DNA from: a virus
Length of the DNA stretch: 64,000 bases
Virus record (IMG/VR): IMGVR_UViG_3300020185_000025
Location: 1-64,000 of that record
Strand: one strand, 5' to 3'
Shown: piece after piece, positions 2,977-45,493 of the stretch
Position numbering within the stretch: the first letter of the stretch is position 1
How the letters are laid out: each line of letters begins with the position of its first letter
Program-made: the position numbers and the translations under genes
Notes under the pieces: generated by a model
Told to the model about the DNA's origin: nothing
Databases searched by the model: none
The model's input: only the letters and a program-made list of their open reading frames with translations

Positions 2977-3489
2977 TTATTCGCCTTTCAAATATGCAAG
3001 TACAACTTCAGGTTGTGTTTCACCATAAGGATCTGTTCCACAATCATCTTCCATCCCAGGTTCACTAAACATTCTTTCGACAGTACCATCGTCTACGACC
3101 ATAGCGTATCTCCAAGATCTTTTACCGAAACCGAGATTGTCCTTTGCGACTAACATATCCATTCCTGCTGTAAATTCGCAAGATCCGTCGGGAATCAATT
3201 TGATGTTTCTCACTCTCAAATCTTCAGCCCAAGCATTCATTACAAAAGTATCGTTACATGAAATACAATATACTTCATCGACACCAGCTTCTAGAATTTG
3301 ATCGTATAATACATCAAACCCAGGAACTTGGTTGTTAGAACATGTTGGAGTAAATGCACCAGGCAGTGAAAATACAACAACTCTTTTTCCTTTAAAGTAA
3401 TCGTCAGTAGTTGGGTGAACCCATTCAAACTCACCGGTTTCTACGTTTCTACGTCTTTCTTTAAATGTTACATTAGGGACTTGTCTCAT
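2977..3489 (-). CDS. peroxiredoxin (Prx5/Redoxin type)
   Basis: FSLPGAFTPTCS peroxidatic motif, GKRSWRYAMVV; start moved to MRQVPN (AGGA SD). Confidence 0.9.
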   Translation of the reverse strand: MRQVPNVTFKERRRNVETGEFEWVHPTTDDYFKGKRVVVFSLPGAFTPTCSNNQVPGFDVLYDQILEAGVDEVYCISCNDTFVMNAWAEDLRVRNIKLIPDGSCEFTAGMDMLVAKDNLGFGKRSWRYAMVVDDGTVERMFSEPGMEDDCGTDPYGETQPEVVLAYLKGE

Positions 3490-3510
3490 AATAAATTTTC
3501 CTATCAATAG

Positions 3511-3544: not shown

Positions 3545-3997
3545 TTAACCTTTTAAGAATTCTTTCTTAGTGTCAATCTTAATTTTTCTAGCCTTTTTAG
3601 CTTCAGGAATAATTCTTTCCAAAGCAACTGTTAAAAGACCGTTTTTAAAGTTGGCGCCGATTACTTCAATATCGTCTGCAAGAGTAAAACTTCTTGTAAA
3701 CTTCTTGAAAGAAATACCGCGGTGAATGTAATCACCTCCGCCATTGAAGTAATCACCAGCTTCATCCCAAGTGGAACGAATGGTTAATACATCTTCTTTT
3801 ACTTCAATTTCTACATCATTAATATCAAGACCTGCGAGGGCAAGATCAATAAAGAACTCTTCACCTTTTGTGGTTCTGATATTATAAGGCGGGAAGCCTT
3901 GAGATTGATGTACTTGTGGGAACTCCGCTAATCTGTCAAAGACTCTATCGAATCCGACAGCAAAAGGGTGTAGTTGGTTTATGTTTAATCCAGTCAT
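3545..3997 (-). CDS. small heat shock protein Hsp20 (IbpA-like)
   Basis: GFDRVFD, FPPYNI, HRGISFKKFTRSFTLAD, NGLLTV. Confidence 0.92.
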   Translation of the reverse strand: MTGLNINQLHPFAVGFDRVFDRLAEFPQVHQSQGFPPYNIRTTKGEEFFIDLALAGLDINDVEIEVKEDVLTIRSTWDEAGDYFNGGGDYIHRGISFKKFTRSFTLADDIEVIGANFKNGLLTVALERIIPEAKKARKIKIDTKKEFLKG

Positions 3998-6196: not shown

Positions 6197-6475
6197 TTAA
6201 CCAATAACCTTTTCAGCCAAAGGAGCATCAGGATTTGTTGTGTCAACAGAAACTTCTTCCTCACCAACCCCTTCAGGTTGCTTTGGACCTTTCTGTCTTA
6301 GGAATGCTTCGATTTTATTTCTCAGCATACCTACACCGGCCATCTCTTGTCCTTGGAATCCACCACGCTGTGATACTACATCAATAATTTGTAGCAGCGT
6401 TGACAGATCACTAAGATTGATAACCACTTCTTGTTCCTGGCCTTGGCCATTTTGTGATACGTCATTCATATTCAT
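6197..6475 (-). CDS. hypothetical protein
   Basis: ORF coupled to gp45 stop. Confidence 0.7.
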   Translation of the reverse strand: MNMNDVSQNGQGQEQEVVINLSDLSTLLQIIDVVSQRGGFQGQEMAGVGMLRNKIEAFLRQKGPKQPEGVGEEEVSVDTTNPDAPLAEKVIG

Positions 6476-7137
6476 TACCTTTTCTTATAAGTCGACTTTG
6501 AATCTATAGCCACGTAATACGTGACACCTTCGCCTTTAAACTCTGAGATACCTTTTGAACAAAGAGTAACATCATAGTCTATTGGCATTAGTTTCAAGTT
6601 ATCAGTTTTAATGATAATCTTGAACTCATCGGCAGTTTCCCCAATTTCAACGCCAAAGTCATCTGCGTTGTCGTTGGCACTGTCGATTGCTTTCAGATAA
6701 CATTTGCCGCCTTCGCCTACAAATGCAATCTCTGAAAATTGTAATACCCCTGCTGCCTTCAATACAGAAGACAATGTATCCGCCGTCACCGATACTTCAA
6801 CATCTGCTGAAGGAATAGTAATATCCTTTTCAGGTGGAGTATGGATCATGGATAAGTCGGCAAAAACATACTTGGTACGTCTTTTACCTTCTGATATAAT
6901 AAAGTATTTATCAAAAAACTCTACATCAGGATCATTATACAGAGATAAAATTGACAAAAATCTTGATAGATCATAAACACATGCATCAGAAGGGATTTCC
7001 TGTGATATGTTTGCGATCGCAATTAGAGTCTTCTCTGGAGTTATAGTCTTAATTACATTACCTTTTGCCAACAAGATTGACTTGTTGATGGAGGTAAAGC
7101 TTTTTAGGACCGTCAAGGTTTCGTTAGAAAATTTCAT
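6475..7137 (-). CDS. gp45: sliding clamp
   Basis: MKFSNETLTVLKSFTSINKSI, YDLSRFL, YYVAID. Confidence 0.93.
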   Translation of the reverse strand: MKFSNETLTVLKSFTSINKSILLAKGNVIKTITPEKTLIAIANISQEIPSDACVYDLSRFLSILSLYNDPDVEFFDKYFIISEGKRRTKYVFADLSMIHTPPEKDITIPSADVEVSVTADTLSSVLKAAGVLQFSEIAFVGEGGKCYLKAIDSANDNADDFGVEIGETADEFKIIIKTDNLKLMPIDYDVTLCSKGISEFKGEGVTYYVAIDSKSTYKKR

Positions 7138-7173: not shown

Positions 7174-7202
7174 ATTATAACAGGTTTATTTAGATTTGTC
7201 AA
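7174..7202 (-). promoter_or_regulatory. sigma70 promoter (gp45)
   Basis: TTGACA-N17-TATAAT; -35 lies inside upstream gene end. Confidence 0.85.
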
Positions 7203-8055
7203 TAGGATCATAAGCTTTTTTGTTAGATTTCTTATCCGCGGTAGCAGTTACACCTAATTGACCGAGAGCTCCCATGTCACCCTTAAAGATATAAGAACCA
7301 ACATGGTTGAGTTTCATCCAAGGACACATCCATACTGAAATGTCGGCTTTACGAGCCATCTTACAGAAGAAGTAATCTTCGGACAAGTACCTTCTTGACT
7401 CTGGGTCAATGACACAATCAAAGAAAGCATGTATATCTCGAGTACCGTCAAATTGTTCCGTTCTAACGTGGTCAGGTTTATATGCAAGTTCAGGATAAGC
7501 ATCTCGATATCTTTCGAGAGCATCTCTTGTGATTAACATAAACCCAGTACCACCTTCGGCAACTTCAACAGGTTCTGCGAGTTTAAATTGTTTTATATCT
7601 CCAACAGGATTAAAAACAAAATCTGATGTAAATTTTTCTAGGTCAAACGGATTCTCTTTGCCTACTCCACTTTGAGCAGCAGCAGATACCTTTTCCCATG
7701 CAATTGTCTTTTTAGGATATGGTCCACAAACGACATCGTATTTTTCAGGATCTGAAATCTGTAATGCAAGTAATGCCAAAGCATCTCTTGGATCAAATCC
7801 AATGTCTGCATCAATAAACAATAAGTGAGTACAGTCAGACCGTAAGAATTCATCTACGATATAGTTTCTTGCTCTTTGTATTAAACTCTCATTGAATAGA
7901 AAGTAATACTTCATTGGTATTTTGTGAGATGAACATAACATACTTAAATCATTAGTTGACTTAGTATATACTCCAGTACACTGACCACCATACATAGGTG
8001 TACCAATAAAGAGTCTTTGTTTTTGTAGTTCTTCTGTTTTTACTTCAAGCTTCAT
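7186..8055 (-). CDS. GT-A fold glycosyltransferase-like protein
   Basis: TPMYGG, LLFIDADI (DxD), GTGFMLI, LSEDYFFC. Confidence 0.75.
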   Translation of the reverse strand: MKLEVKTEELQKQRLFIGTPMYGGQCTGVYTKSTNDLSMLCSSHKIPMKYYFLFNESLIQRARNYIVDEFLRSDCTHLLFIDADIGFDPRDALALLALQISDPEKYDVVCGPYPKKTIAWEKVSAAAQSGVGKENPFDLEKFTSDFVFNPVGDIKQFKLAEPVEVAEGGTGFMLITRDALERYRDAYPELAYKPDHVRTEQFDGTRDIHAFFDCVIDPESRRYLSEDYFFCKMARKADISVWMCPWMKLNHVGSYIFKGDMGALGQLGVTATADKKSNKKAYDPIDKSK

Positions 8056-8690
8056 ACTGTAATTTGCTCCATATCATTTTCGGCTCTTGTGATTGATTGT
8101 AGTCTTAAGACATCAGCTAATATATCCCATGCCGAATCATGAGCTTTAAATACTGATTCCCATTTATCTTCGTTTGCACATGGAGGGAATCCATTCTTTT
8201 TAAGACCAAAGTCAAACTTTGCATCAATAAAAGTTCTTGTATCTCTAACTGTCCAATGTTTTAAATGGGATTGTAGATGGCCTACTTTACCTTGAGACTT
8301 AAATAGTCTTTCAAGTATAACAGGATCAAATGAATTAGATCTTGACCACCAAAAGTCAATCTTAGGTCCGTCAATTAAAAAATCTGTAAATTGTTTTACG
8401 AATTCTTCAACAGAAAGATCTGAACTCTTTGGAGCAATATTCTTTCTTACTTCTGAATCTTGTTTTGACCAAAAGTCGAGAGTACCTTTATCAACTACCC
8501 AATCGTAGTTCTTTACTTGCTCTGCTACATTCAATTTAAATTTCTTTGTCTTGAATACATCGCCTAAATTGTAGGGATCATCTGATGTAAACTTATCCCA
8601 CTGAAAAACCATGACTGACATATCAATCACGGCGCAGTTGTGGACATCTTGTCCCATTGTTTCGAAGTCGATGATTAAGTCGTTTCTCAT
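8052..8690 (-). CDS. dexA: 3'-5' exonuclease, DexA-like (DEDDh)
   Basis: LIIDFET, NSFDPVIL, RDTRT, HDSAWD. Confidence 0.8.
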   Translation of the reverse strand: MRNDLIIDFETMGQDVHNCAVIDMSVMVFQWDKFTSDDPYNLGDVFKTKKFKLNVAEQVKNYDWVVDKGTLDFWSKQDSEVRKNIAPKSSDLSVEEFVKQFTDFLIDGPKIDFWWSRSNSFDPVILERLFKSQGKVGHLQSHLKHWTVRDTRTFIDAKFDFGLKKNGFPPCANEDKWESVFKAHDSAWDILADVLRLQSITRAENDMEQITV

Positions 8691-8715
8691 AGTTTTACCT
8701 TTAATTTAATATACT

Positions 8716-8744
8716 ATTATAACAAACATTGCACCGCTTGTCAA
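8716..8744 (-). promoter_or_regulatory. sigma70 promoter (dexA)
   Basis: TTGACA-N17-TATAAT. Confidence 0.85.
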
Positions 8745-8749
8745 TAGTT

Positions 8750-9976
8750 TTATCCAAAGAATTCTTCCAAGTTTGGAGTTGTATCAGTTCCATTAGGATC
8801 GTATTCCATAAGTTGTTTCAAATTGTTCTGTCTTAAGTATGTTGTATTTGATAGTTCAAGATCGCCTGTTAGAAACTTACTAATTTCCAAATGCATATCT
8901 CTTGATGTTGGTACAGGACAATTCTGAGCAATATGATTCATCTTCTTTAATCCATCAAGCAACTCAAAATTTTCTGGGAATCCCATCATATGTAATGCTT
9001 CACGAATTGTTAATGAACGTTCTTCAGTAGGATGCATTGTGTCAACCATATTACGACCAATCACAGCATTCATATATTCACCAAAGACATGTACTGAACC
9101 ATCCCATACACCTTTGCCATCAGCAAACTTCATAATTGCATGGTCAGAATATTTAATACCTTTTTCGTTTCCTGTTTTGTGGAACCATTCGTTTGCTTCT
9201 TTCATCCAACCTTTCTTACAAACATAATTCAGAGTTGTCTTAACATTCTCTTCAATCATAAGTTCACGAACTTCACGATTTGTTTTTGTCTTAATAAAAT
9301 TGTAATAAGGTTCATCAGGAACATTCTTATTAATAATCAGATCTTGATGTAAAGCGTTTTCAGGAATCTCTTGAAGATATTCAGCAAAATCTTTTCTATC
9401 ACGATTATAATAATTCATAACTGGTGCAGATTCTGATTTCCAACCAATCGCAAATGATCTGTCTCTACCTTGTGGTACTCCATGAAATCTTGTAGAAGTT
9501 TTAAACAATGTTAATGAGTATCCTCTTTCTTTACAAATTTCGTAAAGTTTGTTTGCTACAGGACGTCCTTTGTTTGTAAACAGTGCAGGAGCATTCTCAA
9601 CAATGACTACCTTTGCTCCAAGAACATCAATACCATTTTCAAATACCATATACATAAAGTCGTTCTTTGCACAACCTGCTCCTTTTGATTCAGCGGTCGT
9701 TCCTGTATTCAGTTGAGATAACGCAGCACAAGGTGGAGTACCTGTGACTACATCAACTTGTTTAATATTAGGATTCTCTGAATCTAATAATACATAAGGA
9801 ATATCTTTTCTGCCTAAAGTATTTTGTTGATAGTTTACGTAATGACTATCATTAGCTTCAAATCCGCCAAAAGAGTAAATAGCTTCTGGTGGTTTACCAA
9901 ACGCCTTCTCTGCTCCTAAAGCTTGCCCACCAATAAGTGGAATAAGTGGTGCCCATGTTATTTCTTTTTTGTTCAT
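8750..9976 (-). CDS. C5-cytosine DNA methyltransferase homologue with atypical motif I
   Basis: GTPPC (IV), ENAP (VI), PQGRDR (VIII), TIREALHMMGFP (IX), QNCPVP (X); motif I reads LIPLIGG. Confidence 0.75.
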   Translation of the reverse strand: MNKKEITWAPLIPLIGGQALGAEKAFGKPPEAIYSFGGFEANDSHYVNYQQNTLGRKDIPYVLLDSENPNIKQVDVVTGTPPCAALSQLNTGTTAESKGAGCAKNDFMYMVFENGIDVLGAKVVIVENAPALFTNKGRPVANKLYEICKERGYSLTLFKTSTRFHGVPQGRDRSFAIGWKSESAPVMNYYNRDRKDFAEYLQEIPENALHQDLIINKNVPDEPYYNFIKTKTNREVRELMIEENVKTTLNYVCKKGWMKEANEWFHKTGNEKGIKYSDHAIMKFADGKGVWDGSVHVFGEYMNAVIGRNMVDTMHPTEERSLTIREALHMMGFPENFELLDGLKKMNHIAQNCPVPTSRDMHLEISKFLTGDLELSNTTYLRQNNLKQLMEYDPNGTDTTPNLEEFFG

Positions 9977-11232
9977 CCGAAAAAGTCCTCAAGTGTTGCA
10001 GCTACTTTCTTTTCAAATTGCGTTACATCAGGTGCAACATAATCAGTATCCATCGCTGTCATTATTTTATTGTTTAAGAAAGTACCATCATAATATTCTG
10101 GTTTACATATTAATTTACGTAAACCTTTAATTACAGATTCATACTCATCCTCATTATTTAATAACCTAATCATCCTTTCTTTAAATTCAGCAGGAGTCTT
10201 CGGTCTTAAAAAATCTGGTATTGGCAAATGCCCTTGTTCATCATAAGATGGATGTAAGAACGGTATCACACCAGCATGTACCATTTCAATATACTTTGAA
10301 GTTACCCAACCTTTTGCGATTGGAATAATAAAAGTAAACTTAACATTATTCATTTTAGCCATTACATCGTCAAGATGAATGGATCCTTTAAACCTTGCGT
10401 CGGTTTCAGTATTAGGATGTTCCCATTTACCGTAAATCTCAACGTTGTCAATATCATCAAGTACCCATTCTTTTAATAAGTTATATCTTGAAGGCTTTGC
10501 TTCATTCAATATAACCATAAATGGTAACCTGCGATTTAAATTAAATTGTTCTGAATGTTGATAGTTAATACAGAAGCAAGTTTCCATACCTGCATATGTT
10601 GAAGGTACCTTTCTTTCGTATCTGTTTTGATCTTCATAATCTTTAATACTACTTACTGTATATTCATAATCATATTGACCTAACGATACAGTTGGTAAAT
10701 GGAATATGTCTCTTGATTGATTCATAACATATCTTGGATCATTTACGATTTCAACATAAGGTGGTTGTTCTTCATTTAACCAAATAGAAATTGGTGAAGT
10801 ATAATTCTTTGTCATATCAATAACAGATGCAGGTTTACCATCAGTGACACCATCTTTTAAATGTTTCACCTGAGTAATTTTATCTGGGATCGTAACCGTA
10901 CCAACTTGACCAACCATCATAACAGTATAATCTAACTTGAATCCTTTCTGACCAAAGTAATTAAAGATATGACGATAGAAATTATCAGTACCATCATTCT
11001 TAATACCTTTCCAAATATCAATGACATTATTATATGGAAACAGCTCTAATTCTTCAGCCTCAGTTAGAGTACTGAAATCAGATCTTCCGATAATGTAAAA
11101 TGTTTTGTCTGGGTTATTATTTGCGAGTGCAATTAAAACTGTAGATGGTTCGTTGTCTCCACCAATAGGAGAGAAACGATTCCGTTTGAACTTGACCGAT
11201 TTACCGATCTTTCCGAAGCCAATGTTTTTCAT
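9973..11232 (-). CDS. putative DNA glycosyltransferase (GT-B, beta-glucosyltransferase-like)
   Basis: EIVNDPR, VEIYGKW, FKGSIH, WVTSKYIEMVHAGVIPF resembling the GT-B donor-binding C-domain; clamp-binding-like tail. Confidence 0.6.
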   Translation of the reverse strand: MKNIGFGKIGKSVKFKRNRFSPIGGDNEPSTVLIALANNNPDKTFYIIGRSDFSTLTEAEELELFPYNNVIDIWKGIKNDGTDNFYRHIFNYFGQKGFKLDYTVMMVGQVGTVTIPDKITQVKHLKDGVTDGKPASVIDMTKNYTSPISIWLNEEQPPYVEIVNDPRYVMNQSRDIFHLPTVSLGQYDYEYTVSSIKDYEDQNRYERKVPSTYAGMETCFCINYQHSEQFNLNRRLPFMVILNEAKPSRYNLLKEWVLDDIDNVEIYGKWEHPNTETDARFKGSIHLDDVMAKMNNVKFTFIIPIAKGWVTSKYIEMVHAGVIPFLHPSYDEQGHLPIPDFLRPKTPAEFKERMIRLLNNEDEYESVIKGLRKLICKPEYYDGTFLNNKIMTAMDTDYVAPDVTQFEKKVAATLEDFFG

Positions 11233-11259
11233 AATATAAAATAATTCCGTTCTGTAAAT

Positions 11260-11694
11260 TTATTTATTAGAATCGACCACACGCTTGCGAAGCTCTGTGG
11301 AACTGAAGGAATGCCTTCTTCGATTATAATGTACAGGACACAAACCTTTTCCTGTATGTTCTTGATCTTTGTATTCTTCACCAACAATACGAATGTCAGG
11401 ATTGATTGTAAGAATCATATCAACGATTTCTTGTTCTGTAGAAAACGGTATTACCTCGTCTACATATTTACAAGATGATACTTGTATGTATCTTTCAAAA
11501 GGAGTCTGAATCGGCTTGTTCTTTGCGTCAGGACGATCTACGGTTGGGTCTGTTAATAATCCAACAATTAAATAATCACACATCGACTTTGCTTCTTGTA
11601 GCATAACGATATGACCTGCATGAAATAAATCAAAAGTTGAACATGTAAAGCCAACCTTTGCGCCTTCCGGCAATAGTGTTCTATCAAGAAACAT
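11260..11694 (-). CDS. cytidylyltransferase (TagD/RfaE-like)
   Basis: TFDLFHAGH (HxGH), YLIVGL, SCKYVDEV, SFSSTELR. Confidence 0.88.
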   Translation of the reverse strand: MFLDRTLLPEGAKVGFTCSTFDLFHAGHIVMLQEAKSMCDYLIVGLLTDPTVDRPDAKNKPIQTPFERYIQVSSCKYVDEVIPFSTEQEIVDMILTINPDIRIVGEEYKDQEHTGKGLCPVHYNRRRHSFSSTELRKRVVDSNK

Positions 11695-12601
11695 ATCTAT
11701 TCTCCTCTTTTAATAATTCTTCAACAGCTTTTGCATACTGTGTATATAATGGTTCTTTATCAATTGGTAAGTAATGTATATATGCAGGAATCTTTTTAAG
11801 CTTCTTTACATCTTTCATTATTGTTGTCCATATACGAACATCACTACCAAATCTATCAGGTGCATAACCATTTTCATCAAGCCATTTATAATAGATGGCA
11901 TATATGTTTTGTTCTATGCACCAATACTTGCCACCCATACTTCTGTTGTTCTTTGCCGTACCATAAGCTGGTATGACTGAACCACCATAACCTTTTTTAT
12001 TCTTATACTTATATACACCATCCATGATAAGTATATATGTATCTTTACAAACTGCTCTTTGTAAGAACTCAAGATAATGTTCATTCTTACTATGTATTAC
12101 CTGTCCTGAGTTCATACTGAAATAAGGTTCTTTTCTCATGACTGATATATCAACTAAATCTTTATATAATGGAGATAAAGCTGACTCAACAAATTTACCC
12201 ATAACACCTAATGCAGATTCATTATAGAATACATACTCACTAAAGAAATAATGATCGAGCGGTTTAAGTAATAATACATCGTCGTCCATCATCATTGCTC
12301 TTTGGATATTAAGTACTTCATGTACATACGGAAAGACCAACCATTTAATTGCGACTCCGTATGAATCGAGAATCTTTAACAAATACTCTTCATCAAAGAA
12401 ATGCTTTGTTTTCTCAATCACATCAGTAGCATAATGTATATCAACTGAGTTTTCTATTGAATCTATATTATAAGTCGTTTTCCTATTATCTAGGATAACA
12501 TGTAAGCGTTGACATGTATCTTCTCCGTACACATTATAATACTTAAGAAGATTTTCAATTCTTTCAACTTTATTGCTTACTATGAATATGTCATTGTGCA
12601 T
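11684..12601 (-). CDS. putative GT-A glycosyltransferase
   Basis: MMMDDDVLLLKPLD (DxD), MNSGQV, EQ and late His as in GT8-like enzymes. Confidence 0.5.
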   Translation of the reverse strand: MHNDIFIVSNKVERIENLLKYYNVYGEDTCQRLHVILDNRKTTYNIDSIENSVDIHYATDVIEKTKHFFDEEYLLKILDSYGVAIKWLVFPYVHEVLNIQRAMMMDDDVLLLKPLDHYFFSEYVFYNESALGVMGKFVESALSPLYKDLVDISVMRKEPYFSMNSGQVIHSKNEHYLEFLQRAVCKDTYILIMDGVYKYKNKKGYGGSVIPAYGTAKNNRSMGGKYWCIEQNIYAIYYKWLDENGYAPDRFGSDVRIWTTIMKDVKKLKKIPAYIHYLPIDKEPLYTQYAKAVEELLKEENRYVS

Positions 12602-13631
12602 AATTAATCATGTCCAGTAAATCGTTTACGCATTGAAGAATAAAGTCTTTATCAGGATGATACTTGTAAACTCTAATTACTTCAGCTGCGACTAAGGTAA
12701 GTAAATCGTATTTGTCTATCCAATGATTATATGCCAACAGTGTATTAATAGCCAGATCTTGTTCGGCCGTACTGTAATGATTAATCATCAGACTTGCTAT
12801 GAATTTTGCTATGTCAAGTTCACGACAGCCAAATACATTAGGAATAGGATCAATTAAGAACAATTTGTCTTCATTAAACAACATGTTCTTAACACCAAAA
12901 TCTCCATGACAATAACCGTATTCCAATTCGATTGTTGCCATCTTTTCAATTACTTCTTTAAATGGTTCAAGTTCTGCTAATTGAGCATGACTTGCTATTC
13001 TTGCGATATAATCATCAAAGGTTAGAAACTTATTTTGTTTAATAGTATCCAATCCATCAAGAGATTCTTGAATCATTGCCAAAGCTTTATAAGGATGATC
13101 TGAAAAATAGTTTGGATCGTTTTTAATATAATCCATTGTAAGTGTATCACCTACAACTCTGTGAATCGTTGGAGTATTAACAACAGAACCGGTTTCTTCA
13201 AACCACTTTGCGGCTTCATGAGCGTTTCTTGCCGTCTTATGTACTACATTGCCATCAGTATAGATATCAGAACCTGAGAGACCACCTTCTAGTTCTCTTA
13301 TATCAGTTTCTATAAAATCTTCAGGAGTAATACCTTTATCATCAACATAATATGCTGCAAGTGGTTTATCAAAAGACAGAGCATGATATTTTACATGATG
13401 TCTTTCTAACCAAGCTTCAATTTGTGGACCATACTTATTTGCTGCTTCGACTCTACTCCTACAAGAAATAGAACCACGAGCAGTAAAGATATCAACGATC
13501 CAACCAGAATCGTATAACTTATTACACTTTTCTATAAGGGCAAGATTTGGCTTTGCATTTTCCCAATCTCTGTTGGAGGTATATGCAAGCGTATCGTCAA
13601 AGTCGAGTACAATTCTTTTATGCATCGACAT
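12591..13631 (-). CDS. HAD phosphatase fused to APH/choline-kinase-like phosphotransferase
   Basis: N-term LDFDDTL, FTARG, KP..YYVDDK; C-term GGLSGS, HGDFGVKN, LIDP. Confidence 0.8.
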   Translation of the reverse strand: MSMHKRIVLDFDDTLAYTSNRDWENAKPNLALIEKCNKLYDSGWIVDIFTARGSISCRSRVEAANKYGPQIEAWLERHHVKYHALSFDKPLAAYYVDDKGITPEDFIETDIRELEGGLSGSDIYTDGNVVHKTARNAHEAAKWFEETGSVVNTPTIHRVVGDTLTMDYIKNDPNYFSDHPYKALAMIQESLDGLDTIKQNKFLTFDDYIARIASHAQLAELEPFKEVIEKMATIELEYGYCHGDFGVKNMLFNEDKLFLIDPIPNVFGCRELDIAKFIASLMINHYSTAEQDLAINTLLAYNHWIDKYDLLTLVAAEVIRVYKYHPDKDFILQCVNDLLDMINYAQ

Positions 13632-13857: not shown

Positions 13858-13886
13858 ATTATATCAAACTTTTGGGTCATTGTCAA
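13858..13886 (-). promoter_or_regulatory. sigma70 promoter heading the 13833-8750 operon
   Basis: TTGACA-N17-TATAAT. Confidence 0.85.
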
Positions 13887-14332
13887 TGGTTTGTTCCATT
13901 TAAAAAGTGAACATCAACATTTGCTTCATCAAACATCCTTCTTGATTTTTCAAATGAATCTAACCACTTCTGTGGTATATCATCCATTGACATTACGATT
14001 TTATTTATGCCAACTTGAATAATTCCTTTTGCACAATCATGGCAAACTGGTAATCCAAAGACATATAGAGTTGCATCTTTTAACGAAATACCATTGAAGG
14101 TAGCATTATATATGCAATTCATTTCAGCATGAACAACCAAATCATATTTGATTGATCTGTCTTCATAACGTTCAGGTATATCTTCAATTCCTTTCGGAAA
14201 TCCATTATACCCAGTTGCTAGGATACGACGGTCAGAGTTAACTGCCACCGCACCTATTTGTTTTGAAGGATCCTTACTCCAAGTAGAGATCTCTCGGGCA
14301 ACACGCATAAAGCGGTAATCCCATTTATCCAT
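13883..14332 (-). CDS. cd: dCMP deaminase
   Basis: SKDPSKQIGA, TGYNG, HAEMN, PVCHDC. Confidence 0.92.
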   Translation of the reverse strand: MDKWDYRFMRVAREISTWSKDPSKQIGAVAVNSDRRILATGYNGFPKGIEDIPERYEDRSIKYDLVVHAEMNCIYNATFNGISLKDATLYVFGLPVCHDCAKGIIQVGINKIVMSMDDIPQKWLDSFEKSRRMFDEANVDVHFLNGTNH

Positions 14333-14990
14333 TCTGCATTAACTCCTCAATAAACTCAAAATGTCTTTCGTATACATGGAAGTTAGATGCTGTCCAAATT
14401 AACTGACCAACCTCAACTCCAAGCTCAGTTGCTAATTGTTGCTGAACAAACCTTGCCCAGGCATAATCATTGTTATAACCAAAGACCGCATCGTTAGAAC
14501 GCATAAGATAATGTGATTCTAATTGACCATCTCGAATATAAAATGTATTAGCATAAGTACACATAAAGTCACTCATACCATCACGGTTATAATCAAGGTG
14601 CATACCAGGACGATTATAAATCATCGTAGCACGACGGCTGTTTGGATTATTTCTCAACTCTCGAAGTACATGGCTATATTGATTTCCATTCTCTTCTGAG
14701 TAAATACACCAACCATAATTAGAATTAATCTTACCTTCGTTAGAAGAGATTGATTTCCATATCTGTGGTGTTTCTCCAGGAATATCATCAACATATAATG
14801 ATTGAGACTTATACCATTCCAATTCACGTTCAATGTACTTATATGCTGGTTTACGAATTACATAATCTTCATCAGCATTAAAAGTTGCACCAATAATCTC
14901 GATGGTCTTTACACCAGTTTTATCAATAACAAAATCTTCTGCAAGATACTTGTCCATGATATAAGCTCGAATATCAGTTACGTTGTTCAT
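14325..14990 (-). CDS. gp42: dCMP hydroxymethylase (thymidylate-synthase fold, gp42-like)
   Basis: INSNYG, DFMCT, MRSNDAVFGYNNDYAW with Asp at the dCMP-specificity position. Confidence 0.82.
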   Translation of the reverse strand: MNNVTDIRAYIMDKYLAEDFVIDKTGVKTIEIIGATFNADEDYVIRKPAYKYIERELEWYKSQSLYVDDIPGETPQIWKSISSNEGKINSNYGWCIYSEENGNQYSHVLRELRNNPNSRRATMIYNRPGMHLDYNRDGMSDFMCTYANTFYIRDGQLESHYLMRSNDAVFGYNNDYAWARFVQQQLATELGVEVGQLIWTASNFHVYERHFEFIEELMQNG

Positions 14991-16580: not shown

Positions 16581-16994
16581 TTATTCTCCTTTTAAGTTTG
16601 GTAGGATACCGTGATTGCCTTCATGAGATGGAGCCGTCCATCCTTCAGGTTTCATCAGATCAGGTAATCCTAGTGGGTTTGGCCTTCCTTCCTTTACTCC
16701 AGGTTCCTTGGCCATGTTTGCTTCGAGAACTGCGTCCCAAGCTTTATAAGGATCGACTCCGAAGGCATCAAGAGTACCGATTGCCACTACACAAAGGTCA
16801 ACTAAACCATCTACGATTTCTTCGGAGTCGATAACTTTTTGGGCTGTTCTTGTTTCGGTTAACTCTTCTTCTAAAAAGTCAACTCGAAAACGCAAGAACG
16901 CCTTCAACTGATTTATATCTGCGTTTTCAATCCAGTCATGTGTTTTATACTTTGACTGCATTTCATTAATGTCTTTAACCCAATCTTTACTCAT
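16581..16994 (-). CDS. MazG-like NTP pyrophosphatase (candidate dCTPase)
   Basis: LEEELTE, EIVDGLVDL, ANMAK, KPEGW; start at MSKDWV. Confidence 0.8.
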   Translation of the reverse strand: MSKDWVKDINEMQSKYKTHDWIENADINQLKAFLRFRVDFLEEELTETRTAQKVIDSEEIVDGLVDLCVVAIGTLDAFGVDPYKAWDAVLEANMAKEPGVKEGRPNPLGLPDLMKPEGWTAPSHEGNHGILPNLKGE

Positions 16995-17298
16995 TTGGAT
17001 ATCCTTGTGAAATATAAACGCCAATCATACCAATTTGGCCTTCTGTTAATTTTTGGGCAGTTGGATACATCATTACTGATTGTGGTCCAACCGGTTCACC
17101 TGCTTTGTATTTTAATAACTTACCAATAATATCATCAGCAGATTGTCCTTGAAGTTTAGGACCGATTCCACCTTGACCTTGTGAACCATGACAGGCAGCA
17201 CAAGTAACCATTGTTGGTCTGATATCAGCGAAACGATCTTCAGCCAATGCGACTGATGTCATTCCTAATAGAGCAGTTGTTAATAAAACGTTCTTCAT
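16987..17298 (-). CDS. c-type cytochrome (c553/c4-like)
   Basis: Signal peptide, CAACHG, GPKLQGQ, distal MM. Confidence 0.88.
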   Translation of the reverse strand: MKNVLLTTALLGMTSVALAEDRFADIRPTMVTCAACHGSQGQGGIGPKLQGQSADDIIGKLLKYKAGEPVGPQSVMMYPTAQKLTEGQIGMIGVYISQGYPNE

Positions 17299-17866: not shown

Positions 17867-20425
17867 TTAACTGAAAAAATCTTCAATCGTATTTACCTTT
17901 TCAGCCGACCATCCAACTGCGTCAAGTATTGATTGAATAGGACTTAAGAATACTTTATCAAATTGAAGTTCAGTATCTATATATTGATGCAGTCCTAATT
18001 GTTTTGGTAAAAGACCAGGAACCGATATTGCGTTTTCACGAATCGGATTAGGTACTTTCAAATATAATAGTTTGACCTTATCTCCAGCTTGGATAGTTTC
18101 AAACTTCTTATCAAGTCCTTTCTCTTTAAGGAACTGATTATACATCAAGGATCCACGAACATGCATTGGTGTACCTTTTCGATATACTGAGCTTTTGTCT
18201 TGATACTTTTTAAGTTCAGATACACCTGAAGTCTTTGCGATTTGAATAGGATCCAATTTACGAAAGTCTTCTTTGAATTCTTTAATGAATTCTTGAGTTG
18301 TTTCTTCGTCGGTATTCATAATCACTTCAAAACATTTCTTGAGTTTCTCTCGACAGATTTCTGGTGTTGAAGATCTGACTGATTCCAAACCGGTAACTGA
18401 GATCTTAGGAGTATCATAATGTACACCTTCAGAGTTCAATGTATTTAGAATATATCGTTTCTTGGCAACAAAAATACCACGGTGAGCAATCTTTTCACGT
18501 TTCATTACCATTGCATTACGATATGTACCAAGATCAGCAGCAAGCTTTTCATAACCGTCTTCGATGATTTGTTCTATCTTTGTAGAGCAAACTCTATCAA
18601 GGAACTCTTCACCTTTGTCTTTATCAATATCAGTCGTACCAAATACTTCTGTAATCAGAGGACCGAAGTCAACATAGATAGAGTCAGTATCAATATAAAT
18701 GATATAGTCAATGTCAGTTGTACCTAGAATTTTGTTTAGGTAATCATTCACTGATTTCTGAGCATAACGAATACTAAGCTGGCCGCTTGTTGTAATTGCC
18801 TCTGCCATTTCATTAATATAGTATAAGAAATATACGTTAGCAGTTGCACCATACAAACTATTCATGGCAATCTTAATTGACATTTGCGAGTTATGTAATT
18901 GGTTGATCTCTTTCTTGAGCCTTTTGAGTTCAAGTGGATCTTTTTCAATCTCAAACTGTTGTTCAGCTGCGATCATCTGCTTTTTAATGACAGAACGGTT
19001 ATTATAATATTCTTCAATGATTTCAGGAATGATTCCTAACTTCTTATTAGAAAAGCAAACACCATTAGCAGCAACGGAAACTCCGTTACGATCATTCTGA
19101 TATTCACCTTTGAGTACCATGTCCTGAGTTACGTATTCACGATCATCAGGCATATAGGTTTCTGGTGACATATTATATTGTAGCATCAAGTGAGGATATA
19201 GAGAGTTAAGGTCAAAAGATACAACCCAAGGATGCATACCGACCTTTGGATCTTTTACATAACCACCTACAAGATCTCCTGCTCTTTGACCAGGACCACC
19301 TTTTAATGGAGGAACAATTTTATCTGCCATAAGTTTACGATATATGGTTGCTTCCCATATACCAACCGTACCAAATGCATCACCGTAGTTTACACCACCA
19401 TCATAAGCAACTGTACATACCAACGCAAGTAATCCTGTCTCTTCTTCAAGACGAGCAATCAGTTGAGTATCTTTAAGGTTATAGTCCAAATATAATTGTG
19501 GATTCTCATCCCATAAACCAGTTAGAGAACCATATTCAGAGTAATCAATTTTCTTTTCACCAAGAACAACATAAGCAATATGATCTAACTTGTATGATTC
19601 TTGAGGACCATACTTATAACCAAACTTCTTGAAGCAATCCATATAGTCAATAACAGCAACACCCATAATAGAATATGTTGAATTGACTTTACCGAAAATT
19701 TCTCGAGATCTTTGTTTGATTGATTTATGTGGAGATAACCGTCTTGCAGTATCTTCTCCAAGTAATGCTATGATACGAGTTACGATGTATTGAATGTCAA
19801 AGTACTCAACGTTCCAACCTGTAACGATATCAGGATAATCAGTTGTCCAAAGTTTCATAAAGTATTGAAGCAAAGCACGTTCACCGTCTACTCCATCAAA
19901 TAAAACAAACTTAATCTTATCTTGAGGAATATCAGTAACTGTCTTTGTCTTGTCATAATCTTTACGACCGAGTACATAATAGATATCTTCTCGAGAACTA
20001 TGATAAGCAAGTGACGTAATAGGTTTATCAGCAGTTTCCATATTAGGATAACCATCACTGATGTCAACCTCAATATCAAACGATACGATATTGACTTGAC
20101 TTACATCATAGGTAATCTTGCCTGGGTATTCTTCTTGAATAAACTGAGTCACATAATTTGTTGAACCAAACGTCTTCATACCGTGAACACCTTTGTATTC
20201 TTCGATGAAGTTCTTTGCTTCTCGCATATCACCAAACTTATGTGGAGATACAGGTAAGTTACCTTCTAAAGAGCGATAACCTTCTTCTCCTGCTTTTGGA
20301 GTATGAACATATAGAGTAGGCTGAAATGGAACGCGATACGAAAAACGTTTACCATTTTCGTAACCTCGATGTAAAATATTGTTTCCGTATCTTTCAACGG
20401 ATGTATAGAATTTAGTCAATGCCAT
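17867..20425 (-). CDS. gp43: DNA polymerase (family B)
   Basis: FDIE exo I, SFDLNSLYP, KIAMNSLYG, YIDTDS; clamp-binding tail TIEDFFS. Confidence 0.97.
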   Translation of the reverse strand: MALTKFYTSVERYGNNILHRGYENGKRFSYRVPFQPTLYVHTPKAGEEGYRSLEGNLPVSPHKFGDMREAKNFIEEYKGVHGMKTFGSTNYVTQFIQEEYPGKITYDVSQVNIVSFDIEVDISDGYPNMETADKPITSLAYHSSREDIYYVLGRKDYDKTKTVTDIPQDKIKFVLFDGVDGERALLQYFMKLWTTDYPDIVTGWNVEYFDIQYIVTRIIALLGEDTARRLSPHKSIKQRSREIFGKVNSTYSIMGVAVIDYMDCFKKFGYKYGPQESYKLDHIAYVVLGEKKIDYSEYGSLTGLWDENPQLYLDYNLKDTQLIARLEEETGLLALVCTVAYDGGVNYGDAFGTVGIWEATIYRKLMADKIVPPLKGGPGQRAGDLVGGYVKDPKVGMHPWVVSFDLNSLYPHLMLQYNMSPETYMPDDREYVTQDMVLKGEYQNDRNGVSVAANGVCFSNKKLGIIPEIIEEYYNNRSVIKKQMIAAEQQFEIEKDPLELKRLKKEINQLHNSQMSIKIAMNSLYGATANVYFLYYINEMAEAITTSGQLSIRYAQKSVNDYLNKILGTTDIDYIIYIDTDSIYVDFGPLITEVFGTTDIDKDKGEEFLDRVCSTKIEQIIEDGYEKLAADLGTYRNAMVMKREKIAHRGIFVAKKRYILNTLNSEGVHYDTPKISVTGLESVRSSTPEICREKLKKCFEVIMNTDEETTQEFIKEFKEDFRKLDPIQIAKTSGVSELKKYQDKSSVYRKGTPMHVRGSLMYNQFLKEKGLDKKFETIQAGDKVKLLYLKVPNPIRENAISVPGLLPKQLGLHQYIDTELQFDKVFLSPIQSILDAVGWSAEKVNTIEDFFS

Positions 20426-23254: not shown

Positions 23255-23821
23255 TTACTCCGTATGCGTTGCGACTTTTGCGTTGTCTATAGCAGCTTGC
23301 GCTGATTGCATATAAGCCTTTAACTGATTTCGTTGTTTTGAAATTTTAGATTTCTTTTTTAATGCTCTATCCCATTTGAGTCGAGATACTTTGTCTTTAA
23401 ATACAACACCATATAAGTGGTCATATTCATGTAAGAAACATCTTGCGGTATAACCATCAAACGAACCTTCCTGTGGATTACCTTCTTCGTCAAACCATCT
23501 TGCATCTACAGTGTTTGGACGTTTGAATGATACAAAAACATCAGGATAGGTCAGGCAACCTTCAACATCAAACTCTTCTTCTTCTGATACTGAAATGACT
23601 TCGGGATTAACAAACATCATTGTATTCTCTTTGTTCTCACCAATGATAAACAGTTTATAGTTGATACCCACTTGTGGTGCAGACAACCCCAGGCCTCTTT
23701 TAGAGACCATCAGCTCCACCATTTCTTCCTTGGTTTGCTTTAAATCTACTTGAGGATTTTCAATATCAATATCTTCCAACTCTCTTTTTAGTATTGGATC
23801 ATTGTGTGGTACTAATTTCAT
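23255..23821 (-). CDS. def: peptide deformylase
   Basis: GLGLSAPQ, EGCLT, HEYDH. Confidence 0.92.
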   Translation of the reverse strand: MKLVPHNDPILKRELEDIDIENPQVDLKQTKEEMVELMVSKRGLGLSAPQVGINYKLFIIGENKENTMMFVNPEVISVSEEEEFDVEGCLTYPDVFVSFKRPNTVDARWFDEEGNPQEGSFDGYTARCFLHEYDHLYGVVFKDKVSRLKWDRALKKKSKISKQRNQLKAYMQSAQAAIDNAKVATHTE

Positions 23822-27515: not shown

Positions 27516-27544
27516 ATTATATCAAACTTTAAGTTAGATGTCAA
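27516..27544 (-). promoter_or_regulatory. sigma70 promoter (uvsY)
   Basis: TTGACA-N17-TATAAT. Confidence 0.85.
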
Positions 27545-28139
27545 TAGTTAATATAGTATTTTGTTCTCCAACTCCACGTCTTGCTACTTTATAACCAAGG
27601 TCAATGTATAAGTCTATTGTCTCATCAACTATTTCTTTAGGTGTTAATATGTTTGTCTCAAACTCAATCCAAACAGGCCAACGATCTTTATCTCTTAATA
27701 AAAGAAAAGGAATAAACGATTGAAGTATTTTACAATCACCGCCTTCAGTATCTATCTTTAATACAGTTACTTTATCAACATCATTCTCTTCAAAGATTTC
27801 ACTAAGTGGAATACAGTCAATATCTATTGTCTTAACAAGCTTTTCAAGATTGTGCTTTTTGTGTTGATAGTGATAATCACCTACTGCATTACAACCACGA
27901 ATCCAAAGTGGAAATTGATGTTCATAAATGGTATGAAGTGGTATATAGTATACTTTATCTTTACCGCGCTCACCATCAAAAGAAACCGCACAATTGAGTT
28001 TCTTAACGTTATTTTTATTTGGTAAACGGTCTAAGTAAAATTGTATAGGATCAATAGATAACCCAACGGTGTCGTGAGTTGCTGTTTGAATAAGAGTGTC
28101 AAAGTCCGAAGTGCCTATCTCAATAAAATCATAATTCAT
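27534..28139 (-). CDS. FkbM-family methyltransferase-like protein
   Basis: FIEIGT, LKIDTEG. Confidence 0.7.
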   Translation of the reverse strand: MNYDFIEIGTSDFDTLIQTATHDTVGLSIDPIQFYLDRLPNKNNVKKLNCAVSFDGERGKDKVYYIPLHTIYEHQFPLWIRGCNAVGDYHYQHKKHNLEKLVKTIDIDCIPLSEIFEENDVDKVTVLKIDTEGGDCKILQSFIPFLLLRDKDRWPVWIEFETNILTPKEIVDETIDLYIDLGYKVARRGVGEQNTILTIDI

Positions 28140-28709: not shown

Positions 28710-29441
28710 TTATTCTTCGTTGGTAAGATAGACCATGAATGCACAACACTTGGACCAATCACCAGCAGCTAACCATTTATCATCAGCAGCCAATGCCATG
28801 TGTTTCTTGTCCATCCATCGTACTTTTTTGAACTGAGGTAATAGATTGTCTCTTACTTTTTGCCATTGCTTTGCAGCACCAGGATAACAGCTTAAGTGAA
28901 ACTCAACTGCTATGTGTTTAACGTTTGTAGTTAAATAAGGCATATTCAATTCGGTAAAGACTCCATACTCTCCACCTTCACAATCTATTTTGAGGTAATC
29001 AATCTTTGGTATATTATAATCTACAACAAGATCGAGGAATGACATCTTTTTAAATTCATCGTATTCAGAGAATACATTATTAAAATGATTTGCAGTAGAA
29101 CCTATTCCTGCTTCGATTGGAATAACCGGAATCTTACCGTGATCAATAAAGTAATCCGAAACATTGCGGATAAGAGTTTTGAGATGAGGTCTTGAAGGCT
29201 CGATAGCATATATTTTAGAAGCTTTACGATCAAGAGCGTGAGCGACAAAGAACCCAACACAAGCACCAATATCAACAACAACATCACCTGGCTCAACATC
29301 ACGCCACCATTTGTAATCCATCCTATGAAAGAATTCAATGAATTGTGCATTAACATCTGGTAAGGGTAATCCGTCTGTTGATAAATGTAGGTTTAAGTAT
29401 TTGTTAGTATCTTGATTTTCGTAATCTTCTTTTCTGCTCAT
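28710..29441 (-). CDS. FkbM-family methyltransferase
   Basis: VVDIGACVG, AIEP, LKIDCEGGE, VEFH. Confidence 0.85.
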   Translation of the reverse strand: MSRKEDYENQDTNKYLNLHLSTDGLPLPDVNAQFIEFFHRMDYKWWRDVEPGDVVVDIGACVGFFVAHALDRKASKIYAIEPSRPHLKTLIRNVSDYFIDHGKIPVIPIEAGIGSTANHFNNVFSEYDEFKKMSFLDLVVDYNIPKIDYLKIDCEGGEYGVFTELNMPYLTTNVKHIAVEFHLSCYPGAAKQWQKVRDNLLPQFKKVRWMDKKHMALAADDKWLAAGDWSKCCAFMVYLTNEE

Positions 29442-44178: not shown

Positions 44179-44802
44179 ATGTCAAACAATCTAAAAGAAT
44201 TAACTCGCCAACACCACGATAACGCAGAAAGAACAGAATTCGCAGAAATGCTACTATCGGGCAATATCAGCCCAAAACTATACCAAGAATATTTACACGC
44301 GCAATTACAAAACTATATGGTTTTAGAATCAGCCGTTGAAGTGCCTATGGAATTAGAACCTATATTTAGGTCAACATCAATTGAAGAAGACTTACAAGAA
44401 TTAGAAAACACGTTTGATCTTGAAGAAATTGAAGATAACTTCGAGTCAACATTAGAATATAATAAACATATACTAACTTTACTCGAGGAGGGTAATAATG
44501 AAGGTCTTCTTGCTCATCTATATGTGCGTCATTTTGGAGATGCTCATGGCGGACAAATCATCAAAAGAAACGTACCTGGGTCGGGTCTTATGTATGAATT
44601 CGAGAATAGAGCCGAACTTATTAAAAGCGTAAGAGAACTATTACACGACGGAATGGCTGACGAAGCAATGATTTGCTTTGAGTACGCAGAAAGATTATTT
44701 CATGAACTCATGGAAAATTATAGAAACAACGCTGAGAACTACGAACCTGAAGATTATGCAAGAGCAAGAACAATGGATGCGTGGGACGAAGATGATAGTT
44801 GA
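44179..44802 (+). CDS. hemO: heme oxygenase
   Basis: LKELT...H..AE, AHLYVRHFGDAHGGQII. Confidence 0.9.
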   Translation: MSNNLKELTRQHHDNAERTEFAEMLLSGNISPKLYQEYLHAQLQNYMVLESAVEVPMELEPIFRSTSIEEDLQELENTFDLEEIEDNFESTLEYNKHILTLLEEGNNEGLLAHLYVRHFGDAHGGQIIKRNVPGSGLMYEFENRAELIKSVRELLHDGMADEAMICFEYAERLFHELMENYRNNAENYEPEDYARARTMDAWDEDDS

Positions 44803-45493
44803 TTCGCCACTCTTTGACCAATTAAGAAAACTTGCTTCAACGTTAATTAACGATTTCGATTCAACGATGGAACGCGTTGAGAATAAGAAACACGTTGCTG
44901 ATCTAAATGGATGGAAGGATTACTTCTGGCATAGTAAGGAAATTCGTAAAGCCCATCTTAAGACAATTGAACCTGTAGGTAAGAACAAGTTATGGTTAAT
45001 GCATATCAATATCTTTCCGCGTGAAGGAGTTGATATACCTATCTTTGGTTTAGATATTGTTGCGAATCCAAAAAAGATTAGTGGTTGCTTTTGTGACTAC
45101 TCTCCAATTGATGAACTACAAAAACCCGACACTCATCCTTATATGATTAAGTTCAGAACAGCAACTGAAAATCTAGAATGGAAGAAAGAAAGAGTAATGC
45201 CTGACTGGGCGTTAGAGATCTTTTCGGAAAACATTGTAGGTGCTGGTGCAATTCGCGATGGAGAAGAAACCGAACAGTTAATTAACATGGCTTTAGAACT
45301 CTCAAGGTTCTACACAATGGAGATGGGCAATCCTCAATACAAAACTAGATGGATTAATACTCTCGAACGACAGAACAAGTATTGTGCAAAACAAAAGCTC
45401 AACCGAATGCTTCATAGTTCAATTTTGGCAATGGGAATTTCAGAGGAACGTAAGAATCAGTATGTAGAGAATGTCTTATTTGAAGAGATCTAG
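44792..45493 (+). CDS. ferredoxin-dependent bilin reductase (PcyA/PcyX-like)
   Basis: RKAHL, WLMH..IFP, PIFGLDIVA, DYSP, P.WA..IFS, QNKYC..QK.N. Confidence 0.85.
   Translation: MIVDSPLFDQLRKLASTLINDFDSTMERVENKKHVADLNGWKDYFWHSKEIRKAHLKTIEPVGKNKLWLMHINIFPREGVDIPIFGLDIVANPKKISGCFCDYSPIDELQKPDTHPYMIKFRTATENLEWKKERVMPDWALEIFSENIVGAGAIRDGEETEQLINMALELSRFYTMEMGNPQYKTRWINTLERQNKYCAKQKLNRMLHSSILAMGISEERKNQYVENVLFEEI

Follow-up and report, generated by a model that had tools for sequence, protein, structure and literature searches.

Why would a phage that is predicted to build its DNA from cytosine already substituted at C5 keep an enzyme of the cytosine-C5 methyltransferase (MTase) fold, with its catalytic motifs intact and its cofactor motif altered? 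The question is raised by positions 1-64,000 of the IMG/VR virus record IMGVR_UViG_3300020185_000025 (hereafter the window; the whole record has 88,997 bases and is 42% complete by CheckV), and within it by one open reading frame (ORF), whose product we refer to as the MT-like protein:

8750..9976, minus strand: C5-cytosine methyltransferase-fold protein of the phage 'PLIGG' subfamily (MT-like), 408 amino acids, ATG start (PF00145, AlphaFold2 (AF2) model, Foldseek)

The protein combines a C5-MTase fold and a conserved set of covalent-catalysis residues (Cys83, Glu127, Arg171 and Arg173) with a non-canonical cofactor half, a genetic linkage to a 5-hydroxymethylcytosine (hmC) cassette and a C-terminal tail like that of the phage DNA polymerase. 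The reading we favour, tentatively, is that the gene is a fixed part of the hmC cassette and encodes a clamp-tethered, post-replicative DNA enzyme that would modify unsubstituted cytosines at C5 from a putative donor.

The ORF and its place in the C5-MTase family are as the first-pass annotation of this DNA described them. Residues 15-345 match PF00145 (DNA_methylase; E 2.8e-23, 83.3 bits against a cut-off of 22), and the protein stays below the cut-off of NCBIfam TIGR00675 for dcm (62.2 versus 100.65 bits). The AF2 model (pLDDT 95.2, pTM 0.93) adopts the class I MTase fold with a large and a small domain, and its top Foldseek matches are DNA C5-MTases (E about 1e-13, TM to target 0.64-0.69), every match listed among ranks 1-50 being a cytosine-C5 (carboxy)methyltransferase chain. 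Alignment by hhalign with five canonical enzymes, namely E. coli Dcm and four phage MTases, extends over 330 columns (probability 99.6%, E 1.1e-24). Ordinary methyltransferases in the PDB score only E 1e-6 with the single sequence, and, with the exception of 3G7U, alignments of the subfamily profile with solved MTases begin only at motif IV. A nucleotide search of window positions 8000-12000 against 50,697 phage records returned no match.

All of the motifs that the first-pass annotation had named as present (IV, VI, VIII, IX and X) can be read in the translation, together with the variant motif I:

9926..9946, minus strand: variant motif I, residues 11-17 LIPLIGG, in which I12 takes the position of the canonical Phe and L14 that of the first Gly in FxGxG (translation, hhalign)
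9716..9739, minus strand: motif IV, residues 80-87 TPPCAALS, with the catalytic Cys83 and with Ala84 at the Gln of the canonical PCQ (conservation)
9587..9598, minus strand: motif VI ENAP, E127, N128, A129 and P130 (conservation)
9458..9472, minus strand: motif VIII, Q169-G-R171-D-R173 (conservation)
8906..9019, minus strand: motifs IX (R320-SLTIREALHMMGFP334) and X (I349-A-Q-N-C-P-V-P-T357) (translation, alignment)

Conservation was counted over 103 subfamily representatives at 31-64% identity. L14, G16, C83, E127, A129, T160, R171, R173 and M331 are invariant (103/103), and P13, G17, P30, N42, N128, P130, H165, Q169, K283, Q351 and N352 are conserved in more than 90%. Within motif VI, N128 is kept in 102 and P130 in 101 representatives, and within motif VIII Q169 is kept in 100; in motif X, Q351 (102/103) takes the place of the canonical Gly and N352, at the position of M.HhaI N304, is retained in 100. 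The motif I reported as altered, IPLIGG, is indeed so: canonical enzymes keep F, G, G and G in 5 of 5, the MT-like protein lacks FxGxGG, with both the Phe and the first Gly replaced in the hhalign alignment, and P13 (100/103), L14, G16 and G17 (102/103) are held in its stead. Because these residues are kept across the 103 representatives, the variant motif is not a matter of chance or decay. Six of six clade alignments retain PL(I/V)GG or QPLxGG, an exhaustive profile search collected 1373 representative clusters at E<=0.001 (288 at E<=1e-30), and a protein atlas returned only viral PF00145 clusters for the family. Judged from these sequences, the PLIGG proteins are a large phage subfamily of hundreds of clusters, abundant in marine T4-like phages. 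Targeted searches of the literature turned up no account of the subfamily, and such genes may be listed in supplementary tables; in the main text of a survey of pelagimyophages, sugar genes are taken as host-surface (LPS) genes and methyltransferases are not mentioned (PMC7029224). The region that usually confers sequence specificity is helical and conserved subfamily-wide (K283, W291 and D292; consensus GKGxWDxS), in keeping with a single shared target and not with varied recognition sites.

Seven subfamily members of 432-1462 amino acids are fused to additional sequence, in which a CXXC zinc finger is the only informative extra domain. It belongs to a distant member, P0211 (598 amino acids; PF02008, E 6.6e-7). 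The CXXC domain binds unmethylated CpG in eukaryotic DNMT1 and TET.

The cofactor side departs from the canonical enzymes more widely than the first-pass annotation noted: beyond the change in motif I, the acid of motif II, the Asp of motif III and the Gln of PCQ are unconserved or replaced as well. The structure of the phage carboxymethyltransferase CmoX illustrates what the canonical residues do, with adenine held by Phe-25, Phe-48 and Asp-69 and ribose by Glu-47 (PMC12783734). In the PLIGG subfamily, position 12, the canonical motif I Phe, is I, V or Q. With the register of motifs II and III taken from hhalign, phmmer and AF2 secondary structure rather than from superposition, positions 36-41 hold no conserved motif II acid (36 is Y, F or W in 91/103; 40 is A in 21, K in 14 and a gap in 13; 41 is variable), and the motif III Asp58 is retained in only 40/103. 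An acidic residue near the start of helix B, D/E43 (97/103), might stand in for the motif II Glu. The N-terminal half is itself conserved (P30, S35, F39, N42 and D/E43), and therefore probably binds something.

These features bear directly on the plainest explanation, that of an ordinary SAM (S-adenosylmethionine)-dependent, sequence-specific 5-methylcytosine (5mC) methyltransferase that acts against host restriction, binds SAM despite its odd motif I, and is linked to the cassette by descent only. The passed Pfam gathering score, the retention of all catalytic motifs and of Asn352, and the possible substitution of D/E43 for the motif II Glu speak for it, as do relatives named 'site-specific DNA-cytosine methylase', although those names are automatic. 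We nonetheless regard it as improbable. An invariant Leu occupies the place of the first Gly; the motif I Phe, the motif II Glu and aromatic residue, the motif III Asp and the PCQ Gln are lost or unconserved; the profile's alignment to solved enzymes begins, with its one exception, only at motif IV; and the specificity region does not vary.

Near the C5 of the flipped base, position 84, a Gln that is invariant in 5/5 canonical enzymes, is Ala or Ser in 98/103 (A 77, S 21, G 4), and the Val of the canonical ENV is Ala throughout. In M.HhaI, Gln82, Tyr254 and Asn304 crowd the transferable group, and with Q82A methyl transfer drops about 16-fold while bulkier groups are favoured (PMC3526304). Such a pocket could also serve an enzyme that acts on hmC itself: Cys83 would add to C6 of a flipped hmC, the hydroxyl would leave and the exocyclic methylene would be captured by another nucleophile, or the group would be exchanged or removed, giving a further derivative at hmC sites that the glycosyltransferase does not serve. 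The roomier C5 site (A84 for Gln and A129 for Val, read against PMC3526304) and the loss of the SAM contacts suit this chemistry, and C5-MTases are reported to form covalent complexes with hmC DNA and to dehydroxymethylate it without SAM (PMC11347137). The conserved N-terminal half does not, since it is conserved as for ligand binding, which a cofactor-free reaction would not need. On balance with the evidence from the cassettes given below, we judge action on hmC, the main idea of the first-pass annotation, rather unlikely, though it comes close behind the reading we favour.

The premise that C5 is already substituted in this phage holds up well. The window encodes a homolog of thymidylate synthase ThyA of the T4 gp42 type (hereafter ThyA-hm):

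14325..14990, minus strand: T4 gp42-type 5-hydroxymethyl-dCMP (5hm-dCMP) synthase (ThyA homolog; 1B49 E 5.3e-74; DCDD signature)

A 2026 paper reports that some gp42-like enzymes make 5-hydroxy-dCMP instead and gives diagnostics in ThyA numbering, with N177D marking cytosine, L143D/E hydroxymethyl and D169N the 5-hydroxy type (PMC13326640). The window enzyme has Asp, Cys, Asp and Asp at the positions of ThyA L143, C146, D169 and N177, as in T4 (the DCDD signature). A 5-hydroxy-dCMP synthase of the RB69 type was considered and rejected, the residue at the D169 position being Asp and not Asn. Complete replacement of C in the phage DNA is plausible.

The association between the two genes was followed through 240 IMG/VR loci of three clades, in which ORFs were clustered and the frequent clusters annotated. 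Where 6 kb or more of upstream sequence is available, the locus itself contains a ThyA homolog in 23/23 close relatives, in 28/28 members of a clade at about 32% identity and in 24/57 members of the third clade; the 99 in-locus ThyA-homolog ORFs comprise 95 of DCDD type, 3 that are cut and 1 CCDD. For 46 of the 54 third-clade loci without an in-locus ThyA homolog, the records, which are fragments of 4-65% completeness, were searched as a whole: 12 gave a PF00303 match, 10 of them of DCDD type and 2 with only a true thymidylate synthase. The Pseudoalteromonas phage isolate vB_Psh_XG4 (49% identity) has the same cassette, with ThyA-hm 4.5 kb away, and in the group of cyanophage S-TIM5 (31% identity) a gene 2.4 kb away encodes a 'thymidylate synthase' whose residue at N177 is Asp. 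Co-occurrence with gp42 across phages, which the first-pass annotation had proposed as a check, is thus strongly positive, a cytosine-type ThyA homolog being present in 23/23, 28/28, XG4 and S-TIM5. The reverse does not hold, with the MT-like gene in 16 of 34 ThyA-hm loci that have at least 8 kb downstream, so that the dependence runs from the MT-like enzyme to the hmC route and not vice versa.

S-TIM5 had at first the appearance of a counter-example, with no gp42 match at E<=1e-3, and was dismissed as such on its gp076 (L002:4757-5593). This protein, annotated 'thymidylate synthase', has Asp at N177 and Cys at the L143 position and matches the ThyA-hm profile at E 1.7e-46; from these residues it is probably a dCMP-modifying enzyme, and S-TIM5 DNA may carry 5mC or 5hmC.

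The one-way dependence matters to each explanation. An ordinary 5mC methyltransferase would find its substrate C largely absent, and descent alone sits poorly with an association seen in three genome contexts and two non-T4 lineages. An enzyme that acts on hmC would be expected to depend strictly on the 5hm-dCMP synthase, as the MT-like gene does. The same dependence would also fit an enzyme whose target is unmodified host DNA, to be marked, trapped or damaged during takeover in the manner of the C-DNA-specific functions of T4, or a base-flipping DNA-binding subunit without turnover, as such a role is sensible only where phage DNA lacks bare C; moreover, C5-MTases starved of SAM hold or damage their target. 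The strict conservation of the whole catalytic set argues instead for turnover chemistry, and the tail described below points away from host DNA, so that we consider this role very improbable.

Between the ThyA homolog and the MT-like gene the window holds the remainder of the cassette:

13883..14332, minus strand: dCMP deaminase (PF00383 E 3.3e-20; phrog_174)
12591..13631, minus strand: HAD-type phosphatase fused to an APH-like kinase (TIGR01689 E 5e-17, below cut-off; APH E 2.7e-4)
11684..12601, minus strand: cassette ORF of 305 amino acids, present in part of the related loci
11260..11694, minus strand: cytidylyl/adenylyl-transferase-like enzyme, for a nucleotide-activated sugar or polyol (PF01467 E 3.4e-16; RfaE domain II and TagD-like matches below cut-off)
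9973..11232, minus strand: DNA glycosyltransferase like the T4 beta-glucosyltransferase (BGT), ending TLEDFFG (AF2, Foldseek)

The 305-residue ORF has no match in Pfam, PHROG or NCBIfam. The glycosyltransferase model (AF2 pLDDT 86.7) finds T4 BGT as its best Foldseek match (1qkj/1c3j, E 4e-9, TM(target) 0.62-0.68), and its stop codon overlaps the start of the MT-like gene in an ATGA.

Among the inspected loci that span 14 kb or more, the order is fixed at both ends: the ThyA homolog and the deaminase come first, the MT-like gene is always last in the cassette, and replication genes follow. What lies between varies: the sugar modules beside the constant MT-like gene are of no fewer than five kinds, and the glycosyltransferases of three types. 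An obligate complex between the MT-like protein and the glycosyltransferase was considered as well; the type of the neighbouring transferase differs between cassettes. One cassette type has the phosphatase-kinase, cytidylyltransferase and BGT-like transferase; another an inositol-phosphate-synthase-like protein, a 5-hmdU-DNA-kinase-like (HMUDK-like) protein and c14; a third a transferase like the T4 alpha-glucosyltransferase (AGT) with an epimerase; and a fourth DegT, GT2, HAD, nucleotidyltransferase, BGT-like transferase and epimerase. The cassette of L141 has only a TET-associated-type glycosyltransferase (TAGT; PF20691, E 1.9e-20). This constancy beside different sugars argues against sugar-specific chemistry. 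The interpretation of the first-pass annotation is supported in part: the paradox it drew from the gene is real, the co-occurrence with gp42 is borne out, and each of the three activities it proposed, editing of hmC, use of another cofactor and methylation of residual C, may apply.

For an enzyme acting on hmC the same observation is a difficulty, as are the competition with the glycosyltransferase for one base and the want of any constant cassette gene for a second substrate or a nucleophile supply; on the other side, in one cassette type (27 loci) the gene immediately upstream is 5-hmdU-DNA-kinase-like, and its product would create a leaving group. No restriction-enzyme partner was found among the annotated frequent neighbour clusters of the MT-like gene, which counts further against an ordinary methyltransferase.

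Several neighbours within the cassettes deserve description in their own right. In L086, L097, L098, L124, L144, L160, L170 and others, the 5hm-dCMP synthase is paired with a 5-hmdU DNA kinase helical domain protein (PF18723, E 1.4e-11; e.g. L097:2533-3684), in a cassette type where an FkbM methyltransferase and an inositol-1-phosphate-synthase-like gene are found as well. The combination is a hint that cytosine may be hypermodified there by a phosphate-activated, non-glycosidic route. In one clade (L086, L097, L098, L119, L124 and L144; e.g. L124:11148-11477) the MT-like gene is followed immediately, on its downstream side, by a gene for ribosomal protein S21. In the window, a phrog_1574 protein (7186-8055, minus strand, E 7.8e-57) has a DxD-like FIDAD stretch, only faint glycosyltransferase matches and no clamp-type tail; it is encoded two genes downstream of the MT-like gene in 64/80 close-relative loci and may be a second transferase.

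Where the enzyme would act is suggested by its last residues, which resemble those of the DNA polymerase:

8753..8773, minus strand: tail NLEEFFG of the MT-like protein, a probable gp45 sliding-clamp-binding epitope (tail comparison)
17867..20425, minus strand: T4-type DNA polymerase ending TIEDFFS (phrog_262 E 2.8e-293)
6475..7137, minus strand: gp45 sliding clamp, the presumed docking partner of the tails (phrog_223 E 6.7e-69)

T4 gp43, gp55 and gp33 are reported to bind gp45 via similar hydrophobic-acidic C-termini (PMC2988020), and the C-terminus of the MT-like protein has the features of such a clamp ligand, being short, hydrophobic and acidic, and polymerase-like (NLEEFFG versus TIEDFFS). 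A tail of the type LE(E/D)FFx occurs on only 3 of 92 window ORFs, namely those of the MT-like protein, the glycosyltransferase and the DNA polymerase. Across loci it is found in TAGT (7/7), c14 (36/45), the HMUDK-like kinase (23/36), the MT-like protein (147/241), the BGT-like (72/127) and AGT-like (12/22) transferases and the polymerase (28/74); it is absent from ThyA-hm (0/92), the deaminase (0/84), the epimerase (0/95), the cytidylyltransferase (0/71), UvsX (0/112), the helicase (0/93) and the clamp itself (0/54). The looser resemblance of DegT C-termini (13/21, ...KTFFNK) is probably fortuitous. The carriers are thus the enzymes expected to work on DNA, and the nucleotide and sugar enzymes are without it. 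Moreover, the tails of the polymerase and the MT-like protein covary in 72 of 74 loci (both in 27, neither in 45, discordant in 2).

Complex prediction with three gp45 chains and residues 365-408 scored 0.56 against 0.00 for the best of three controls, a result in which the solved RB69 clamp-polymerase peptide complex may be remembered. The mark applied to such predictions is reached by 58/80 solved complexes and 2/110 mismatched pairs, and scores at or below 0.60 belong to only 7 of the 80 solved complexes and to both mismatches that passed. Contacts agreed between runs to at least 57%, with partner pLDDT of at least 43. The model lends weak support to binding of the MT-like tail to the gp45 clamp. 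The distribution of the tail suggests that the DNA-modifying enzymes may ride the sliding clamp and travel with the replisome. Being common to the polymerase and the DNA glycosyltransferases, the tail points to nascent phage DNA, and this is the second argument against a host-DNA target.

Most likely, then, the MT-like enzyme acts on nascent phage DNA, using Cys-C6 chemistry on a cytosine-type base, in a role independent of the sugar and sensible only in an hmC phage. In the mechanism that we propose for our favoured reading, in which unsubstituted cytosines are the target, the enzyme would ride the gp45 clamp behind the fork, flip a cytosine-type base and add Cys83 to its C6, and so install a C5 substituent on cytosines that entered the DNA without one. 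As possible donors in the rebuilt pocket we envisage an unusually posed SAM, a compound related to SAM or a one-carbon folate, and the reaction could yield 5mC, 5hmC or a larger derivative. As a result no bare cytosine would be left, while the adjoining glycosyltransferase decorates hmC.

Several points weigh against this mopping-up role. A phage that keeps dC out of its DNA altogether, as T4 does, would leave the enzyme nothing to mop up. The Ala residues that replace the PCQ Gln and the ENV Val would fit a flipped base already substituted at C5 at least as well as bare cytosine. With the canonical adenosine contacts lost, a SAM-type donor is doubtful. The third clade has other tails, with the motif in 2/83, and the co-occurrence counts, being drawn from related phages, do not represent independent events.

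A bolder proposal concerns the chemistry: the PLIGG subfamily may be a natural DNA enzyme that turns a C5-MTase active site to something other than SAM-dependent methyl transfer while riding the replication clamp with DNA glycosyltransferases, either as a DNA-level cytosine hydroxymethylase or alkylase with a non-SAM donor, or by activation or exchange of the hydroxymethyl group of hmC. We consider this possible, if still doubtful. Were it true, reactions that have been met only as side reactions in vitro would gain their first natural, dedicated enzyme, and phage DNA hypermodification a new step. An enzyme that handles a non-SAM donor or hmC would give the C5-methyltransferase fold a new reaction and provide a new tool for hmC chemistry, and one that merely methylates leftover C would show a phage closing the gaps of pre-replicative base replacement. 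Hypermodification of phage DNA is a source of enzymes for epigenome sequencing and DNA labelling, and shapes the escape from restriction and CRISPR.

The remainder of the window is that of a marine T4-like phage, with a T4-type replication module of DNA polymerase, clamp, clamp loader, gp46/47, gp55, UvsY, UvsX, gp41, gp32 and topoisomerase II. Two further genes of nucleotide metabolism can be named:

16581..17024, minus strand: MazG-like all-alpha NTP pyrophosphatase, an inferred candidate dCTPase (PF01503 E 5.8e-9; phrog_671)
55242-55775: thymidylate-kinase-like ORF

A peptide deformylase gene lies inside the DNA-metabolism operon, a placement reported as core to pelagimyophages (PMC7029224), from which the host of the window phage can only be inferred. 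It is one of several auxiliary genes, for a peroxiredoxin, an Hsp20, the peptide deformylase, a ferredoxin-oxidoreductase-like protein and a RimK-like ligase (2977-3507, 3545-3997, 23255-23821, 44678-45493 and 62399-63850). A small ORF with a cytochrome c match (16987-17298, minus strand; PF00034, E 3e-5) lies inside the nucleotide-metabolism operon, and FkbM-type methyltransferase genes (27534-28139 and 28710-29441, minus strand; PF05050, E 1e-8 and 6.5e-11) stand on either side of a tail-tube-like gene. Distant from the cassette, cytidylyltransferase-like (phrog_3041, E 1.4e-99) and phrog_455 genes (57837-59618 and 52890-54122, plus strand) may serve another glycan pathway.

How does this system compare with those already known? 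With the canonical DNA C5-MTases (M.HhaI, M.HaeIII and E. coli Dcm) the MT-like protein has in common the fold and motifs IV (Pro-Cys), VI (Glu-Asn), VIII (QxRxR), IX and X. It differs from them in PLIGG for FxGxGG, PCA/S for PCQ, ENAP for ENV and QN for GN in motif X, as well as in the unconserved motif II Glu and aromatic residue and motif III Asp, the conserved and helical variable region, the clamp-type tail and the score below the dcm cut-off. The reactions of C5-MTases with 5hmC in vitro, covalent complexes and loss of the hydroxymethyl group without SAM, are chemistry that is possible for a Cys-Glu-Arg site, although they are known only as a test-tube side reaction of ordinary enzymes (PMC11347137). 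A literature search found no natural enzyme dedicated to C5-MTase-type 5hmC chemistry.

The hmC system of T4 (gp42, gp56 and the alpha- and beta-glucosyltransferases) has its counterpart in the window in the gp42-type synthase, dCMP deaminase, NTP pyrophosphatase and beta-GT-like transferase. T4 is not known to have a C5-MTase-fold partner; about half of the sampled ThyA-hm loci are like T4 in being without an MT-like gene.

Two published systems come closer. CmoX of Synechococcus phage S-B43 (PDB 8YF3) is likewise a phage enzyme of the C5-MTase fold, a C5-carboxymethyltransferase described as feeding hypermodification (PMC12783734), and it is a structural neighbour of the MT-like model (Foldseek rank 34, E 1.2e-11). 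It keeps the adenosine contacts Phe-25, Glu-47, Phe-48 and Asp-69, which the MT-like protein has lost, and it has SPPC, Arg-350 at the M.HhaI Asn-304 position and a CmoA companion, whereas the MT-like protein has TPPC, a kept Asn352 and a 5hm-dCMP synthase as partner (PMC12783734). We therefore rejected a CmoX-type assignment for want of the SPPC/Arg signature (TPPC; N352 in 100/103); for CmoA, the Cx-SAM synthase, no window ORF is so named in general family scans, with no dedicated search made. In the pathway of a methyltransferase, a TET/5mYOX oxygenase and glycosyltransferases, a C5-MTase-fold gene is likewise clustered with DNA glycosyltransferases that decorate 5hmC, although there the methyltransferase is described as making 5mC, which TET oxidises after replication (PMC8256090; 10.1101/2023.12.21.572611), whereas here hmC is made before replication by the ThyA homolog. 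No Tet_JBP (PF12851) match at E<=0.1 was found in the 88,997-base record, itself a fragment, and a TET pathway is unsupported to that extent. CmoX and the methyltransferase-TET pathway are the nearest published cases to the MT-like enzyme, and both differ from it in their defining features.

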